Positions 3-50,880 of a stretch of DNA of 64,000 bases are shown in pieces; within the stretch, counting starts at the first letter, position 1; the number at the start of each line of letters is the position of its first letter. The notes below the pieces were generated by a model. It ran no database searches. It was given only the letters and a program-made list of their open reading frames with translations, and was not told where the DNA came from. Source of the DNA: Patescibacteria group bacterium (lineage in GTDB: Bacteria > Patescibacteriota > Patescibacteriia > PEXW01). The DNA is taken from NCBI GenBank assembly GCA_041665345.1, contig JBAYJA010000001.1, positions 137,206 to 201,205 of the forward strand. Direction: 5' to 3'. The translations under genes and the position numbers were made by a program.

Positions 3-908
3 TTGCAAGCCCCGCCGCCAACCAAGGGGAAGAAGGTGAAAGCTGCGCCCACGGCCGCGGAGAGTCGGTTAGATTTGTCAGACATTTCTGGCGACTCCAT
101 TCAGATGTACCTCCGAGAAATCGGGAAGGTGCCGCTGCTCCGGCCGGGTGAAGAAATAACCCTGGCCAAGCGGAAGGAAGCCGGGGAAGTGGAAGCCGAG
201 AAGAAGCTAGTGGAAGCCAACCTCCGCCTCGTGGTTTCCATTGCCAAGAAGTTCACCGGTCGCTCCCTGTCCCTTCTCGACCTCATCCAGGAAGGGAACA
301 TTGGTTTGTTCCGCGCCGTGGAAAAGTTTGACTACCGGAAGGGTTACAAGTTTTCCACGTACGCCACCTGGTGGATTCGTCAGGCCATCACCCGCGCTTT
401 GGCTGATCAATCCCGCACCATCCGCATCCCCGTGCACATGGTGGAGACTATCAACAAGTTCCAGCAGATCGAGCGTCAGCTCATCCAAGACTTGGGCCGC
501 GAGCCCCTGCCTGAAGAAATTGCCGCGGAAATGGGCGAGCCCATTGAGAAGATTCATCACATCATTAAAATCTCCCAGGAGACGGTGTCCTTGGAAACGT
601 CCGTGGGCGAAGATGATGAAGACTCTACCTTGGGTGACTTCATTGAAGACCAGAAGACCATTAGCCCCGACCGCGCCGCGGCCATGCAGATCCTGCGGGA
701 TCATGTCAGGGATATTCTGGACACCCTCAGCCCCCGCGAGCAGAAGATTTTGGAAATGCGCTTTGGTCTCAATGACGGCGTGGCGCACACCCTGGAAGAA
801 GTCGGTCAGGAATTCGGCGTGACGCGTGAGCGTATTCGGCAAATTGAAGCCAAAGCCCTGGAGCGCATCAAAGACCACGAGGTGATGAAGAAGCTGAAGG
901 ATTACTAA
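3..908 (+). CDS. rpoD: RNA polymerase sigma-70 factor RpoD/SigA, N-terminus cut by window edge
   Basis: Translation carries sigma-70 regions 2-4 ([13 protein letters not shown]; [28 protein letters not shown]). The ORF runs off the 5' edge of the window. Confidence 0.95.
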
Positions 909-1062: not shown

Positions 1063-1137
1063 TCCCAGGTAGCTCAGTGGTAGAGCGATCGGCTGTTAAC
1101 CGATTGGTCGTCGGTTCGAATCCGACCCTGGGAGCCA
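1063..1137 (+). tRNA. tRNA-Asn (anticodon GTT)
   Basis: Cloverleaf folded by hand: acceptor tcccagg/cctggga, D-arm agctcagtggtagagc, anticodon stem atcgg/ccgat with loop ctGTTaa, T-arm gtcgg-ttcgaat-ccgac, discriminator g, then CCA encoded. Confidence 0.9.
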
Positions 1138-1150
1138 CCAGCCCTTTTGT
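1124..1150 (+). repeat. direct-repeat copy 1: tRNA-Asn 3' end plus 13 nt (gaccctgggagccaccagcccttttgt)
   Basis: Matches 1696-1722 (gaccctgggagctatcagtcctttttc) at 22 of 27 positions, including a 12-nt perfect core. The pair brackets the deaminase gene. Confidence 0.6.
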
Positions 1151-1176
1151 TCGATTATTTTCCATTACTTTCTGTT

Positions 1177-1671
1177 ATGGATACAAGCCCTGAAGAGACA
1201 TTCATGAATCTAGCCATTCAGGAAGCACAGATTGCCAAAGCTGGTGGTGATTTTCCTTTTGGTGCAGTGATTACACACCATGGGAAAGTTATAGCAAGTG
1301 GTCATGCAGAAAATAATGCAAAAGGTGACGCGACTGCGCATGCGGAAATGCAGGCACTTCGAAAAGCTTGCACATTGTTGGGAACACATAATTTACGTGA
1401 TTGTACTATCTATTCAACTCATGAGCCTTGTATCATGTGTGCTGCGGCAATTTTTCAAGCAAAAATCCCGAAAGTTTTTTTCGGTGCTACAAGAGAGGAT
1501 TTACCTTGGCTCATGCGAGCCCGCAAGGTTCGAATCGACGATCTAGCGAAGGATTCAAATTTTTCAATCCAAATTGTTCAAGGAATCCTTAAAGATAAAG
1601 TTTTAGAATTATTTGTAGATTTAGAAGCAAAGTTCAGTTCGAATCAAGAGCGACTTCAGAAATTGAAGTAG
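1177..1671 (+). CDS. CDA-fold nucleoside/nucleotide deaminase (TadA/GuaD-like)
   Basis: Zinc-binding motifs HAE(MQALR) and PCIMC(AAA) match the cytidine/deoxycytidylate deaminase superfamily. Start moved to ATG 1177 because the ORF-track start at 1147 abuts the tRNA. The gene is AT-rich. Confidence 0.8.
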   Translation: MDTSPEETFMNLAIQEAQIAKAGGDFPFGAVITHHGKVIASGHAENNAKGDATAHAEMQALRKACTLLGTHNLRDCTIYSTHEPCIMCAAAIFQAKIPKVFFGATREDLPWLMRARKVRIDDLAKDSNFSIQIVQGILKDKVLELFVDLEAKFSSNQERLQKLK

Positions 1672-1695
1672 ATACTGATCGTCCCGCCACGGCGG

Positions 1696-1722
1696 GACCC
1701 TGGGAGCTATCAGTCCTTTTTC
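1696..1722 (+). repeat. direct-repeat copy 2 of the tRNA-Asn 3' end
   Basis: See copy 1. Lies just downstream of the deaminase stop codon and the hairpin gtcccgccacggcgggac. Confidence 0.6.
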
Positions 1723-1842
1723 CATAGTCTGCGTTTGCAGGGTTGTAACCGGATTGGAACGTCGTTGGTTGCTTTTTTGGATGTTGCAACGAGAATATTA
1801 TTGGAGTAAGCTAATGAATGCTCGATCTAGAAACAATTTTTT

Positions 1843-2283
1843 ATGGAAGCAAATAATTTTGAGAAACGAGAGTCACCTGTTTCTTCAATGAAAGCAAAAG
1901 AGTACTACCTCGCAGACGCAGAGCATGTAGATCGGAGTAAATTTAGAATGGACATTCTACGGTGCGCCCGTGAGCAGGGAGTTCCTGTTTCAACAGTTCT
2001 CGCAAGTTTTTTTGAAAATGGGCAGTTTACCAAAAAGGAAATGGGTACGTTTGCTTTAAATACTTCCTCTAGCGGGAATCTTGTGGAAGGGGCTGTGGCG
2101 CTGATGCACGCGCTTGGTGTCACGGAGGAAACCGCAGAAACGATGCGTATTTTGGAGGACTACATTGGGGTTAGCGAAACTGACCCACAAACCTGGGGCG
2201 CGTCGTGGGTAATTGATAGTGCAATGAATTGGCCACCAGGGACAAGTCTTGCTAGTTCACGAGCTCAGCTGGCAAAGCTGTAA
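1843..2283 (+). CDS. hypothetical protein (moderately low GC)
   Basis: 146-aa ORF with no motif I recognise. No clear SD sequence. About 46% GC. Confidence 0.4.
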   Translation: MEANNFEKRESPVSSMKAKEYYLADAEHVDRSKFRMDILRCAREQGVPVSTVLASFFENGQFTKKEMGTFALNTSSSGNLVEGAVALMHALGVTEETAETMRILEDYIGVSETDPQTWGASWVIDSAMNWPPGTSLASSRAQLAKL

Positions 2284-2558
2284 GCGAACGTCAATATTTT
2301 TGAATTTTAGCGTATACCCTTATCTGAAAAGGAGGGTTATCGGTTTGCCCGAGCCAGCATCTGTGCTCAAATGGAGAATCTCGAAGCGAAGCGAGATTCT
2401 GCTGAATGGCGGGACGGGCTTCTTCCAGGCCAGAGGTCGGAGCTAAAATGTGAAACGTCATCGGTTGCTTTCTGCATCCCAAAAAAAATGGTGGTATCGA
2501 CCAGTGTCGTTTTTTCTGCTACAGTGAATGACTCATTTCCCTTTCGATAACGTAAAGT

Positions 2559-3572
2559 ATGCGTACCAAAATTATTGCCACCCTGGGTCCAAAATCGGAG
2601 AGTCCGGAAGTCATTGCGCAGCTGGTGAAAGCTGGCATGGACATTGCCCGGATGAACTTTAGCCACTGCACGTACGATGAGTACCTGGCGCGGACCAAGC
2701 ACTTACGTGCTATCCAAAAGGAAGTTGGCCGACCCATCAAGATTATGCAAGACCTCCGCGGTCCCCGGTTACGCGTGAGCAATGTACCCAAAGATGGTTT
2801 GGAGTTGACCCACGGCATGATGGTGACGTTTTCTACCAGCACCAAAGATACCAAGGCATTGCATGTCAGTGATCCACATTTGCACAAGGACATTTCGGTT
2901 GATGATCCACTTTTCCTGGTCAATGGCGCGGTTGAACTCACTGTACGGAAGGTGACCGGTACTACTATCCAGGCTGAGGTGATCCACGGGGGCCGGATTT
3001 TTGAGAACACTGCAGTCAACGTGCCCAACACTCGTCTCACCACAGCTGGGTTAACGGCGAAGGATAAAGAGGATGTCCGTTTTGCCTTGGAGCACGGTGT
3101 GGATTACATTGCACTTTCCTTTGTCCAATCCGCAAAGGATGTTGAGGATTTGCGGAAGTTGGTGGGCACAAAAGCCAAGATTATTGCCAAGATCGAACGC
3201 CGAGTTGCCTTGGCGGACATTGATAGCATTATTCAAGCCGCAGACGGCATTATGGTGGCGCGAGGAGATTTGGGTACAGAAATGCCGGTGGAAGAAGTTC
3301 CGTTCATCCAGAAGAATCTCATTCGCCATGCTGCCTGGCACCGGAAGCCCTGCATTGTCGCCACGCAAATGCTGTTCAGCATGGTGGACACGCCGCATCC
3401 CACGCGCGCCGAAGTGTCCGACATTGCCAATGCCGTGTGGGAAGCAGCCGATGCGGTCATGCTTTCTGACGAAACTGCTTCCGGTCTGTACCCAGTGCAG
3501 GCGCTGCAGACCATGGCCAAAGTGGTGAAGCGTGCAGAGCACTTCCGCTACCAGACCGAGAATTTGCTGTAA
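2559..3572 (+). CDS. pyk: pyruvate kinase, short form lacking the C-terminal regulatory domain
   Basis: MRTKIIATLGP..NFSHC..MVARGDLG..ATQMLFSM..MLSDETASG match pyruvate kinase barrel motifs. Only 337 aa against about 470 typical. Confidence 0.9.
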   Translation: MRTKIIATLGPKSESPEVIAQLVKAGMDIARMNFSHCTYDEYLARTKHLRAIQKEVGRPIKIMQDLRGPRLRVSNVPKDGLELTHGMMVTFSTSTKDTKALHVSDPHLHKDISVDDPLFLVNGAVELTVRKVTGTTIQAEVIHGGRIFENTAVNVPNTRLTTAGLTAKDKEDVRFALEHGVDYIALSFVQSAKDVEDLRKLVGTKAKIIAKIERRVALADIDSIIQAADGIMVARGDLGTEMPVEEVPFIQKNLIRHAAWHRKPCIVATQMLFSMVDTPHPTRAEVSDIANAVWEAADAVMLSDETASGLYPVQALQTMAKVVKRAEHFRYQTENLL

Positions 3573-48110: not shown

Positions 48111-49721
48111 ATGCCTACAATTTTTAAACTCTCTGTTGGCAACCTGCACGATGCTGACCACGCAAAACGCATTGTTGAGCACCTACAACAGATGCCAGGG
48201 ATCATGCGGGTTGATGTGAATGCCAGCAAAGGCTTGCTCCGCGTTGTCGCTGCAGCAGACGTGGTTTTTACGCAGGTGGAGCAGCGCCTCCAATCCATCG
48301 GAGTTGTGGCTACACTATTTGCATCGCCAGATATTGGTGAGCATCCCTCGCAAAAACTGGAAGTACGTATTGCCGGCATGCACTGCCGTAGCTGTGAGCT
48401 TCTGGTGGAGCGGGAATTTAAGCAGCTGCCGGGCGTGCAGAAAGTGCAGGTAAACGCAGATCGGGGGTACGCCCGTTTGACCTGTGATGCAGCTATTTTG
48501 CCTTCTCGAACTACGCTGAACAGCGTCATTGAGAAGCATGGCTACAAAGTCGCGGCGAAGCAGATTCAAAGCGAAGGACTTCCAGAAACAGAACGTCCGC
48601 GTTTTGGCCAGTTGCTTGGCATCTTTGCCTTGGTATTCGTCATTGGATTCATTCTGTCAAAAACCGGACTACTCCGCTTCAATGCTGATGTTGGCAACTC
48701 AACCGGGCTGCTCGCTATTTTCTTCCTTGGCCTCGTCGCTGCCACAAGTTCCTGCCTTGCTGTGTCGGGTGGGCTCATGCTATCGGTGGTGGCAAATTTT
48801 CGGGAGCGGTACAACCTCCAGGGTCGCGCCAGGCTTATCCCCACTGTAAGTTTTGTTGCGGGTCGAATCATTGGGTATGCCGTCTTGGGTGGAGTGATTG
48901 CTGGTATTGGTAAAGTGCTCTCGCCGTCACCACTCTTCACCGCCGTGATTACGATTATCGCGGCACTGTACATGTTCATTATGGGTTTGGATATGCTGCG
49001 CTTGGCGCCGAGTTGGCTGAAAGCGATTCTCCCCCGGATGCCCAAGGCTTTGGGTCACCGGGTCATGGACAGCAACAAGAATGTTCACTGGTTTTCCCCA
49101 TTTCTCCTGGGGGCACTCACCTTCTTTTTGCCGTGTGGGTTCACGCAGTCCCTCCAGCTGTACGTCCTGACTACCGGAAACGTGCTTACTGGAGCATTGA
49201 CGATGTTCGCCTTTGCTTTGGGAACTGCGCCGGCATTGCTCGCTCTCGGCTGGGTGTCACATTCACTCAAGGGCAAAGCGGGTCAGTTCTTCTTCCGGCT
49301 GGCTGGCGCAGCCGTTATCGTTCTGGGGCTGTACAATTTCAGTAATGGCTTGGCCATTGCCGGCTACCCAATTTCTTTTTCCCGTGGGTCAAGTCCTGAA
49401 ACTGTGGTGCAAGGCAATGTCGCCGATCCGAACGTGATCTTTGATGGTACACGCCAAAATGTGAAGACGACCTTTACCGACTTTGGGTATAGTCCAAGCA
49501 CCTTCACCGTGAAGGCTGGCGTGCCTGTGCACTGGGAAGTGGATTCTGCTGGGAAAGCGGGTGGATGTCGGTCATCTTTCCTAGTACCAAAGTTAAAGAT
49601 TTCTGAATCGGTGGTGAATGGGGTAAGCATTTTTGACTTTACCCCAGACACGCCCGGCACGTACGCCTTCAGCTGTGGTATGGGCATGTACCGTGGCAGC
49701 TTCTCCGTGGTTTCTACCTAA
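48111..49721 (+). CDS. heavy-metal-associated (HMA) domain protein with a CcdA/DsbD-like TM domain and C-terminal cupredoxin-like domain
   Basis: Degenerate HMA 1, then HMA 2 with GMHCRSC. TM core with conserved Cys (ATSSCLAVSGG; FLPCGFTQSL). C-terminal FSCGMGMYRGSF beta-domain. Confidence 0.6.
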   Translation: MPTIFKLSVGNLHDADHAKRIVEHLQQMPGIMRVDVNASKGLLRVVAAADVVFTQVEQRLQSIGVVATLFASPDIGEHPSQKLEVRIAGMHCRSCELLVEREFKQLPGVQKVQVNADRGYARLTCDAAILPSRTTLNSVIEKHGYKVAAKQIQSEGLPETERPRFGQLLGIFALVFVIGFILSKTGLLRFNADVGNSTGLLAIFFLGLVAATSSCLAVSGGLMLSVVANFRERYNLQGRARLIPTVSFVAGRIIGYAVLGGVIAGIGKVLSPSPLFTAVITIIAALYMFIMGLDMLRLAPSWLKAILPRMPKALGHRVMDSNKNVHWFSPFLLGALTFFLPCGFTQSLQLYVLTTGNVLTGALTMFAFALGTAPALLALGWVSHSLKGKAGQFFFRLAGAAVIVLGLYNFSNGLAIAGYPISFSRGSSPETVVQGNVADPNVIFDGTRQNVKTTFTDFGYSPSTFTVKAGVPVHWEVDSAGKAGGCRSSFLVPKLKISESVVNGVSIFDFTPDTPGTYAFSCGMGMYRGSFSVVST

Positions 49722-49729
49722 GCATAGGT

Positions 49730-50698
49730 ATGAAAATGCTTACCTTTCATGGAGAGTACTCGTACAACAAAGCAACCACGTATGAAGGTTTTGTCGCCCT
49801 TTGTCACTTTGAACCCTTTGATGATATTGATTTGATTCGGAAAGCCGCATTGGCGCTTGTGAAAAAAGCTGGTCGGGAGCAAATTATTGTTGTCCCATTT
49901 GCACATTTGCATAGCAAAGTTGCACCAAGCAAGGAAGGGAAATTTCTTTTTCAAACACTAGTGCACAGCATTTCTTCTCAACATCCGAAAACGGTGTCGG
50001 CACCATTTGCTGTAGAAAAAGCGTTGCATATATCTGTTCCAAAAAAAGATTCACTAATAAATTTTCTCAATTTTAAACCTACATACCTTCATGAAGTTCG
50101 GAGGCTCTATGAGGTCTACGCGGAAGATTACGATTTGCACATGATGAAAACCGGGCATTACAAAGCGCAAGAGAGAATTTATGAGGCCGTGAAGGCACAC
50201 ATTTATGAGCCGGTCATCGATGTTGCTTGTGGTCCTGGTTTTTTACTGACGCAAATAATGCGAGATTATTCAAAAGTGTACGCGAACGACATTTCCGAAG
50301 CAATGATTGCTCTTGCAAAAGCGCGAGTGAAAGGAAAGCATATTGCATTTTCAAAAGATGATGCGATGACCCTTGATTCTTTTGGTGGCAAAAGATTTGG
50401 AACAATTATTTCATCTAATCTTTTTTACTATATAAAAGACAGAGAAAAGGCAGTACAAGGGTGGAAAAAGTTTTTACAGGATAGTGGGAGCATTATTTTT
50501 ATTGAGGAGTACCCGTTTATAAACACAAAATCGAAATATTTTGAGGGAAAAAGAAGCGGGATTACCAGTATTCTCTCACCAGTTTCACCCGATGAAATCA
50601 CCGCGCTCATGAAGCACAATGGCTTTACACTGACGCTGAATACAAAAACCGCAATAGATAAACGACATGATTTATTTGGGTTGGTATTTAAAAAATAA
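49730..50698 (+). CDS. class I SAM-dependent methyltransferase with an unknown N-terminal domain; low-GC, likely horizontally acquired
   Basis: Motif I VIDVACGPGFLL. About 40% GC against about 58% in flanking copper genes. Confidence 0.7.
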   Translation: MKMLTFHGEYSYNKATTYEGFVALCHFEPFDDIDLIRKAALALVKKAGREQIIVVPFAHLHSKVAPSKEGKFLFQTLVHSISSQHPKTVSAPFAVEKALHISVPKKDSLINFLNFKPTYLHEVRRLYEVYAEDYDLHMMKTGHYKAQERIYEAVKAHIYEPVIDVACGPGFLLTQIMRDYSKVYANDISEAMIALAKARVKGKHIAFSKDDAMTLDSFGGKRFGTIISSNLFYYIKDREKAVQGWKKFLQDSGSIIFIEEYPFINTKSKYFEGKRSGITSILSPVSPDEITALMKHNGFTLTLNTKTAIDKRHDLFGLVFKK

Positions 50699-50880
50699 TC
50701 TATGCCTTCACATATTCCCTTTGACCCTGATTTTGACCAACCTGCACGCACGCCTTTCCCTGGGTTTCTCCGGGGCACAAGTGCACGAGTTGCGCTCATC
50801 CTCGGTATGACCATCGGAATGTCGGCCTTGAGTTTCATTGGCATTGTGCTTTTTCTGCTCTTGAAGCGTAACGGTTAGGT

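Follow-up and report, generated by a model that had tools for sequence, protein, structure and literature searches.

A deaminase gene between duplicated tRNA-Asn 3' ends in a Patescibacteria genome: evidence for insertion of a foreign one-gene segment

A 64,000-nucleotide stretch (64 kb; the window) of a Patescibacteria (candidate phyla radiation, CPR) metagenome-assembled genome (MAG), with a GC content of 51.6%, contains a tRNA-Asn gene that is followed by a short segment carrying a single gene, which encodes a predicted zinc-dependent deaminase. We favour, with moderate confidence, the explanation that recombination inserted a foreign one-gene segment at the tRNA-Asn gene's 3' end, where the segment now stands without a recombinase, in the manner of a cis-mobilizable element (CIME). 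The features of the segment and of its target are the following (att, attachment site; nt, nucleotides; aa, amino acids):

1063-1137, + strand: tRNA-Asn (GTT) with encoded CCA, the proposed target gene, intact (ARAGORN; Rfam RF00005, 75.1 bits)
1124-1148, + strand: left copy of the direct repeat, attL-like, with 10 nt of trailer after CCA (repeat finder, 12-mer count, alignment scan)
1149..1203, + strand: untranslated leader of the insert (promoter scan empty; unlike the region upstream of the deaminase gene in L001, a locus described below)
1204..1671, + strand: deaminase coding sequence, 155 aa, with HAE at 1342-1350 and PCIMC at 1426-1440 (Pfam, NCBIfam)
1681..1698, + strand: GC-rich hairpin, abutting the right repeat copy in the position of the T-arm (fold)
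1696..1720, + strand: right copy of the direct repeat, attR-like, a displaced tRNA-Asn 3' end plus trailer

The two repeat copies, GACCCTGGGAGCCACCAGCCCTTTT (1124-1148) and GACCCTGGGAGCTATCAGTCCTTTT (1696-1720), were found by the repeat finder to be 22/25 identical at a spacing of 572 nt. This is essentially the imperfect tRNA 3'-end repeat with a 12-nt core that a preliminary description of this DNA had reported at 27 nt and 570 bp. The first 12 nt of the repeat are the end of tRNA-Asn, namely three nucleotides of the T-stem, the 3' strand of the acceptor stem, the discriminator and the first C of CCA, and the rest runs through CCA into the trailer. The exact 12-mer occurs at two sites only in 64 kb, and none of 100 shuffled sequences holds it even once, in agreement with the earlier statement that it is unlikely to arise by chance. 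When the tRNA and its trailer were scanned against the whole window by local alignment, the distal copy ranked first with a score of 35, the runner-up scoring 26. At all three mismatched positions, the tRNA-side copy reads C and the distal copy reads T. A chance repeat in a T-rich trailer, with low GC as a property of the deaminase family, is hardly credible: although the tRNA part alone is a 12-nt match scoring 24 against background maxima of 22-23, the match including the trailer is the first in the window, the shuffled sequences lack the 12-mer, and the same configuration occurs independently in L001.

TCGTC at 1678-1682, just 5' of the distal copy, again matches the tRNA (1106-1110). Between this match and the distal copy, a 12-nt GC-rich hairpin core stands in place of the 11-nt interior of the T-arm, which yields GTCCCGCC-AC-GGCGGGAC. 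The resulting hairpin (1681-1698) is the only one of such kind in the window, and similar arm-replacing hairpins are present in displaced tRNA fragments of relatives. We also considered a longer pseudo-tRNA copy reaching into the 3' end of the deaminase gene (TCAGTTCGAATC at 1634-1645, and AGAGCGA), but its permissive score of 127 compares with 129 elsewhere, and TCAGTTCGAATC was ruled out as a tRNA relic, being conserved coding sequence in L001. The further repeat families D1, D3 and D7, a 109-nt periodicity inside the open reading frame (ORF), are short matches within coding sequence. In a comparison with known RNA families, the tRNA was the sole match in the window, and the L001 inserts matched no family.

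An assembly artefact can be excluded, because four other independent assemblies carry the locus: a 1.07-Mb ENA contig and two Logan contigs match it at 100%, and a JGI contig matches it at 99.8%. The Logan contigs L178 and L179, two independent assemblies, start at window positions 1108 and 1110, inside the T-arm of tRNA-Asn. These breaks suggest a graph branch arising from the repeat or from upstream population variants, and an alternative arrangement could be hidden there.

The composition of the deaminase gene is foreign to the window. Its GC content is 0.404 and its GC at third codon positions (GC3) is 0.295, about 4.6 standard deviations (SD) below the 0.586±0.063 of the 43 ORFs in the window that have 220 aa or more; a GC this low is found in only 1.2% of windows of 468 nt. 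Atypical composition relative to the host, a criterion for genomic islands, is thus seen in the GC3 of the deaminase gene. The segment between the repeats holds one credible ORF, as expected from the earlier account of a stretch of about 40% GC encoding only a HAE/PCxxC deaminase. The same account had low GC continuing to about 2500, which holds for the deaminase gene and is only weakly true beyond it: the next gene, ORF2, is intermediate (GC 0.474, GC3 0.422), and positions 2301-2500 have a GC of about 0.485 against the window mean of 0.516. Further downstream, the pyruvate kinase gene pyk has a host-like GC3 of 0.618.

Comparison with relatives, which had been proposed as a check, revealed tRNA-Asn sites that lack the deaminase gene. 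In L174, a Logan contig that starts at tRNA-Asn, an ORF2 homolog (78%) follows the tRNA directly, after 113 nt, with no deaminase between. In the window, about 130 nt separate the displaced tRNA end from ORF2, and this similar spacing therefore makes the distal repeat copy and the DNA that follows it look like the original tRNA end and its downstream region. A metagenome scan with RpoD, whose gene lies upstream of tRNA-Asn in the window, returned 80 loci, 77 of them with downstream sequence. A tRNA-Asn gene was found within 1 kb after rpoD in 17/77, and the deaminase gene, ORF2 and pyk were found in 0/80. Other genes follow the tRNA in two of these relatives. The closest by rpoD, L120 (RpoD 97% identical in aa, rpoD DNA 84%), has nothing in common with the window beyond the tRNA. 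In L096, the tRNA-Asn is 73/75 identical to that of the window and has other DNA downstream; the tRNA match therefore indicates that the window tRNA-Asn is native and that synteny breaks exactly at its 3' end. The insert is absent at the same site in L174, L120 and L096, and no compared relative has near-identical flanks. A search for an empty site through pyk yielded homologs at 78% and 72% with unrelated upstream genes. Foreign-composition DNA at the tRNA-Asn 3' end, bounded by a duplicated tRNA end, agrees with the integration at a tRNA gene that the preliminary description had put forward.

The tRNA-Asn gene after rpoD in L120 (JGI Ga0172379_10024513, 690-1295) is itself split in the anticodon loop, with halves at 690-723 and about 1253-1295, and is missed by ARAGORN. 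Its halves are separated by a group I intron of about 530 nt (Rfam RF00028, 72.3 bits, E 7e-18), within which an HNH endonuclease-like ORF is encoded (740-1057). A second, different tRNA-Asn lies at 2418-2493.

A second bracketed copy of the gene was found in L001, which belongs to a different Patescibacteria MAG of 45.6% GC. Its deaminase (P0002) is the closest homolog of the window protein, 81% identical in aa and ~80% in nt from ATG 1204 to the stop, with unrelated flanks. The gene is preceded by a 16S rRNA gene and by tRNA-Ile, tRNA-Val and tRNA-Phe, and ATCCTGGCCCTCGGCA, which starts 1 nt past the deaminase stop, is 15/16 identical to the 3' end of tRNA-Phe. The 13-mer core of this tRNA end has two sites only in L001 and was found in 0/200 shuffles. 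The brackets in the window and in L001 therefore show the same gene enclosed by a duplicated tRNA end at two tRNAs in two genomes. Just after the deaminase gene and the tRNA-Phe copy (L001, 6550-6935) lie two overlapping 69-aa ORFs, by eye a frameshifted MazG-like nucleoside triphosphate (NTP) pyrophosphohydrolase.

The deaminase subfamily is often found beside tRNA genes. Among seven independent genomic contexts, four have a same-strand tRNA within 350 nt upstream of the deaminase gene, each a different one: tRNA-Asn at 66 nt in the window, tRNA-Phe at 177 nt in L001, tRNA-Ser at 38 nt in L180, and tRNA-Tyr at 346 nt in L083, where a GIY-YIG ORF lies between. In L085, L086 and L087, the deaminase gene has no adjoining tRNA. 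The adjacency is strongly non-random if a few percent of genes sit in such a position, a figure that is an estimate and not a computed value. A clear duplicated tRNA end is present only in the window and in L001 among the subfamily contexts.

Displaced tRNA ends are also seen elsewhere in these genomes. We searched for 12-mers from the terminal 25 nt of 66 non-redundant tRNAs in the fetched loci, which had been chosen for other reasons. The 3'-end 12-mers recur 20-4000 nt downstream in 10/66 tRNAs and upstream in none, and the 5'-end 12-mers recur upstream in 5/66 and downstream in none. Polar partial tRNA copies of this kind were seen at L001, L089, L094, L096, L100, L102, L116, L134 and L147, a polarity expected from integration into tRNA ends. 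Partial tRNA duplication by integrating elements is a general phenomenon (PMC9897764). The gene-bearing brackets comprise the deaminase twice, an MNT/HEPN pair at tRNA-Val in L147 (1086 nt) and an islet with XRE, ImmA and methylase-fragment genes at tRNA-Asn in L116 (3104 nt); an integrase was found in none of those examined.

In the insertion explanation that we favour, a 572-bp segment (1149-1720, equivalently 1124-1695) would have recombined into the native tRNA-Asn gene at its 3' end, with the last 12 nt of the tRNA plus the trailer as the putative recombination core. The tRNA would have been kept intact at the left (attL-like), and the other copy of the 3' end, attR-like, would have come to lie 572 nt further downstream, with the old neighbour ORF2 immediately after it. 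The sole cargo would be the deaminase gene, from a lower-GC donor that was most likely another Patescibacteria lineage. Integrase-type recombination is presumed, and because no recombinase is encoded, the segment may be either what is left of a larger element that integrates at tRNAs or a small cassette that an integrase moved in trans. The locus had been described earlier as a decayed cargo-only remnant. It is indeed cargo-only, but decay from an integrase-bearing element does not follow, since no element gene is present and a trans-moved cassette fits equally well.

Several observations weigh against this explanation. Neither in nor beside the insert, whose neighbours are rpoD, ORF2 and pyk, is there an integrase, an excisionase or another element gene, so that the recombinase is hypothetical, and 572 bp is far under the usual size of islands. 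Brackets at different tRNAs would need two elements of different att specificity, both of which kept this gene alone, and the flanks of the window and L001 inserts share no common ends. Most inserts behind displaced tRNA ends are 60-190 nt long and gene-less, which classical integration of prophages or integrative and conjugative elements (ICEs) explains poorly. The L174 contig begins at the tRNA, giving no upstream context, and its arrangement could be a secondary loss through recombination between the repeats. Finally, distant subfamily members (52-58% identity) lie in ordinary housekeeping contexts without repeats, showing that the gene is not always mobile.

Some of these observations would be accounted for if the deaminase gene were a small non-autonomous one-gene cassette, placed, like the 60-190-nt gene-less inserts, by a lineage-specific process such as a trans-acting recombinase or local target duplication. 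We regard this as possible but fairly improbable. It would explain why the same gene stands behind different tRNAs, each time bracketed by that tRNA's own end (tRNA-Asn in the window, tRNA-Phe in L001), and why 4/7 subfamily contexts adjoin four different tRNAs. The displaced 3' ends in 10/66 tRNAs, mainly with short gene-less inserts, the GC-rich mini-hairpin often found in place of a tRNA arm and the lack of an integrase in any bracket seen are also in its favour. However, the two deaminase inserts share neither terminal sequence nor a recombination site, the duplicated length ranges between 12 and 56 nt, which does not resemble a target-site duplication of fixed size, no candidate for the enzyme was found, and the sample is small, from loci chosen for other reasons. 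Within the favoured explanation, the occurrence at two different tRNAs and the many very short inserts argue against simple decay.

A broader version is that a process in Patescibacteria, possibly integrase-independent or trans-acting, inserts short DNA (60-190 nt, occasionally one gene) into tRNA ends with regeneration of the tRNA. The polar fragments with mini-hairpins would be its traces and the deaminase gene a habitual passenger hopping between tRNA genes. We consider this rather doubtful, and the lack of shared ends, the variable duplication (12 to 56 nt) and the failure to find a candidate enzyme argue against a novel mechanism. If the polar tRNA-end fragments do reflect a lineage-specific insertion mechanism and not ordinary island decay, the locus matters more. 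The insertion is a new, very small example of the known tRNA-site islets, and of the two leads, the tRNA-end fragments found across the lineage are the more unusual.

The displaced fragments have further peculiarities. Mini-hairpins that replace a tRNA arm include GTCCCGCCACGGCGGGAC, TTCGCCGCGGCGAA, GCCCCGTAGGGGC and GACCGTAGGTGG; sites are at 1681-1698 in the window, ~1540-1560 in L102, ~4760-4775 in L089, 5860-5880 in L001 and 5927-6220 in L096. In two genomes (L096 and L134), tRNA-Ser(GGA) has a 3' copy at exactly +143, each co-varying with its own tRNA. Upstream of the real tRNA-Asn, L096 contains two identical tandem 147-nt units, each a truncated 5' part of tRNA-Asn plus a 95-nt hairpin-rich insert. 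CCA follows displaced 3' copies of tRNA-Phe (L001, 6469-6487), tRNA-Ile (L001, 5496-5522) and tRNA-Ser (L096, 1890-1925), although the functional genes have no encoded CCA. The pattern is consistent with the displaced copy as the original end of the gene; copying from mature tRNA was considered and is not needed. A motif resembling repetitive extragenic palindromes (REP-like), CCCTGAGCGAAGTCGAAGGG, lies beside tRNA genes in two unrelated MAGs (L001, 5269-5285, 5446-5505 and 8590-8610; L083, 4715-4735), with inverted copies on either side of tRNA-Ile in L001. As a candidate for an element common to the short tRNA-flanking inserts it was rejected, being the only sequence shared (L001 and L083) and absent from the window.

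The leader and trailer of several tRNAs are complementary and lengthen the acceptor stem by about 10-16 bp (window, 1040-1160; L001, 5298-5396 and 5725-5830; L120, 670-680 and 1296-1306). The window tRNA-Asn precursor folds at z -3.1, and the 25-nt repeat contains the trailer half of the extended stem. In L001, the leader and trailer of tRNA-Phe form a 16/16 inverted repeat.

Some features of the junction could also be produced by natural transformation followed by homology-facilitated illegitimate recombination. A donor tRNA with the deaminase gene behind it would have served as the anchor, the other end would have been joined by T-arm microhomology, and the old 3' end of the recipient would have been left downstream. 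An integrase is then unnecessary, subfamily members are natively found behind tRNAs (38 nt after tRNA-Ser in L180; tRNA-Tyr in L083), and the junction keeps only GTC/GAC of the T-stem around the foreign hairpin. This course of events is nevertheless unlikely, because the tRNA-Asn, 73/75 identical to that of L096 over its full length, shows no donor-derived part and the duplication runs 13 nt into the trailer, which an anchor within the tRNA does not predict. L001 would moreover require a donor with the gene behind tRNA-Phe.

The expression of the deaminase gene bears on a further alternative. The in-frame starts at 1177 and 1147, which would lengthen the protein, are probably unused; the homology to L001 begins at ATG 1204, and the ENA assembly (L177) annotates the protein at 155 aa. 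A promoter scan detected no promoter-like site between tRNA-Asn and the deaminase ORF. No intrinsic terminator was found after the gene; the 1681-1698 hairpin lacks a T-run and folds at z -0.9. Because its own promoter was not detected, the gene is probably transcribed by read-through of the tRNA/rpoD transcript, a prediction made from the sequence. The lack of a promoter would also suit a native, vertically inherited deaminase that is co-transcribed with tRNAs, the tRNA-end copy being a local duplication or a processing or termination element, and so would the habitual tRNA adjacency of the subfamily and a TadA-like fold appropriate to a tRNA-related function. We judge a native gene very unlikely. 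Such a gene with a functional tRNA-like 3' element is contradicted by the composition, its GC3 being 4.6 SD lower than that of the window's long ORFs, and by the absence of the gene from the closest rpoD/tRNA-Asn relatives. In addition, the copy has no 5' partner strand and its folding is unexceptional (z -0.9), L180 and L083 have no such copy, and the three C>T changes suggest a decaying one.

The protein matches Pfam dCMP_cyt_deam_1 (PF00383, CMP/dCMP deaminase zinc-binding; 2.5e-29) and reaches 89.4 bits with the NCBIfam TadA equivalog NF008113, under its cutoff of 150. Together with 29 homologs (42-81% identity), it represents a distinct subfamily with the pattern PFGAV...HAE...EPCxMCAAAIFQAKIP...RxDLPxLLRxRK...LELF, and the HAE/PCxxC zinc-site residues are invariant across the subfamily alignment. 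The canonical TadAs of the same search (P0036-P0058) have P[IV]GA, AHN and a basic C-terminal FFxxxR. In the alignment, the deaminase has PFGAV, lacks AHN and has LELFxD where FFxxxR is expected. Searched against structures, the subfamily profile gave 110-114 bits for TadA and 102 bits for guanosine/guanine deaminases, with the core alone aligned. An AlphaFold2 (AF2) model with a predicted local distance difference test (pLDDT) of 94 had TadA structures as its best full-length PDB matches, with template modelling (TM) scores of 0.82 (7CPH), 0.81 (2B3J) and 0.80 (1WWR). The TadAs of B. subtilis and S. aureus match the model at TM 0.81-0.82, Arabidopsis guanosine deaminase matches it at 0.79, and B. 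subtilis GuaD matches it at 0.61 over the core only.

The likeness to TadA (7CPH, 2B3J, 1WWR, 1Z3A) lies in the small single-domain cytidine deaminase (CDA) fold, HAE and PCxxC, a TM of about 0.8 and 31-35% identity, and the protein is labelled tadA in IMG. It differs in having PFGAV for P[IV]GA, in lacking AHN, the GAxDxKxG loop and the basic C-terminal FFxxxR helix end, in its own RxDLPxLLRxRK insert and in falling under the NCBIfam TadA cutoff. With GuaD (1WKQ) and the guanosine deaminase GSDA (7DBF) it shares PFGAV, and the profile score of 102 bits, against 110-114 for TadA, and the TM of 0.79 to GSDA are close; the GuaD match is confined to the core, the C-terminal third being unalignable. 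The model thus predicts a zinc-dependent hydrolytic deaminase of the TadA/guanosine-deaminase fold, with tRNA A34 or a free base or nucleoside as candidate substrates. It is plausible that the protein is other than the housekeeping TadA, as the fold is TadA-like but the canonical motifs are absent. The deaminase is the only instance of the HAE/PCxxC motif in the window, with no other CDA motif in the 64 kb, and ARAGORN found no tRNA-Arg gene there. If the deaminase were the only TadA of the organism, the locus would matter more: the cargo moving at a tRNA site would then be an essential gene for tRNA editing. Adenine base editors are built on TadA as their scaffold, and divergent natural variants such as this TadA-fold subfamily (PFGAV/RxDLPxLLRxRK) are of some applied interest.

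A defence or editing role, which had been suggested for the gene, found no backing. PADLOC gave only 31.8 bits, covering the zinc motif in a dCTP deaminase model of 630 positions, and the NCBIfam antiphage_deaminase score was 26.9 against a cutoff of 400. PHROGs and PADLOC together returned only generic zinc-motif matches, and there is no defence neighbourhood. A phage origin was likewise rejected: IMG/VR contained one remote match at 39%, phage records reached at most 42%, and no close viral relatives were seen.

The genes and repeats around the insert are as follows:

3..908, + strand: rpoD (primary sigma factor), 3' part, the conserved left flank (Pfam Sigma70 r1.2/r2/r3/r4)
1755..1775, + strand: left copy of a second imperfect repeat (18/21, family D4) that flanks ORF2 (repeat finder)
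1843..2283, + strand: ORF2, with the conserved part from about ATG 1888 (homologs)
2451..2471, + strand: right copy of the second imperfect repeat (18/21), flanking ORF2 (repeat finder)
2559..3572, + strand: pyruvate kinase gene (pyk), 337 aa, barrel domain only, the right flank (Pfam PK, 1.9e-99)

ORF2 is a real gene of a rare family, with 23 clusters in 1.84 billion proteins and no Pfam, NCBIfam, PHROG or PADLOC match; a 66% homolog lies among housekeeping genes in Yanofskybacteria. The preliminary description had placed the ORF at 1843-2283 in the same islet as the deaminase gene. We place it outside the islet, because it lies beyond the repeat pair and adjoins tRNA-Asn in L174 without a deaminase. 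By sequence comparison, ORF2 is taken to be an ancestral or earlier neighbour of tRNA-Asn. An older event may have involved ORF2 itself. AAATGTGAAACG (2447-2458), adjoining the right ORF2-flanking repeat, resembles a tRNA-Asn trailer motif that is common to L120 and L174 and lies behind ORF2 in L174. As proof of an older ORF2 layer this motif, AAATGTGGAACGAA, was rejected: L120 and L174 have it in identical form, but in the window there are three mismatches and the copy is not significant alone. The ORF2-flanking repeat and the trailer motif together hint, though weakly, at the trace of an older insertion layer.

Islands and prophages integrated at tRNA 3' ends have been reviewed (PMC9897764). 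Like such islands, the window insert adjoins an intact tRNA, is bounded by a direct repeat of the tRNA 3' end, has an atypical composition and is absent from relatives. Unlike them, it has only 572 bp and one gene, and it lacks an integrase, further element genes and identifiable ends. Reiter in 1989 and Williams in 2002 reportedly described islands, islets and prophages integrated into tRNA 3' ends. The nearest known counterpart in structure is the CIME, which retains att sites and whose genes for integration and transfer have been lost; CIMEs were defined in Firmicutes as derivatives of ICEs and integrative mobilizable elements (IMEs), and for some of them mobilisation by an incoming ICE has been demonstrated (PMC5704250). 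The window insert is similarly bounded by attL/attR-like repeats at the end of its target gene, has no mobility genes and stands in possible tandem with the older ORF2 layer. It differs from CIMEs in being much smaller and in that no parent element, integrase or viral relatives were found. Integron cassettes are also promoterless single ORFs of about 0.5 kb that are inserted by recombination and served by an upstream promoter, but the window has no attC (one hairpin only), no intI/attI platform and no array, and the recombination site is a tRNA end. If the insertion explanation is right, the locus offers a clean, minimal example of a reduced, symbiotic bacterium gaining a gene at a tRNA gene. 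The routes of horizontal transfer in such bacteria are poorly known, and, to our knowledge, integrases are rarely seen beside their acquired genes.

Two minor observations concern other genes of the window. The pyruvate kinase lacks the C-terminal regulatory domain, and most of the listed Patescibacteria homologs also have about 335-345 aa. A second low-GC stretch (about 0.41) at 49400-50700 covers a 322-aa ORF (49730-50698), whose GC3 of 0.363 is the lowest of the long ORFs and whose C-terminal half resembles an S-adenosylmethionine (SAM)-dependent methyltransferase; it may be another acquired gene.

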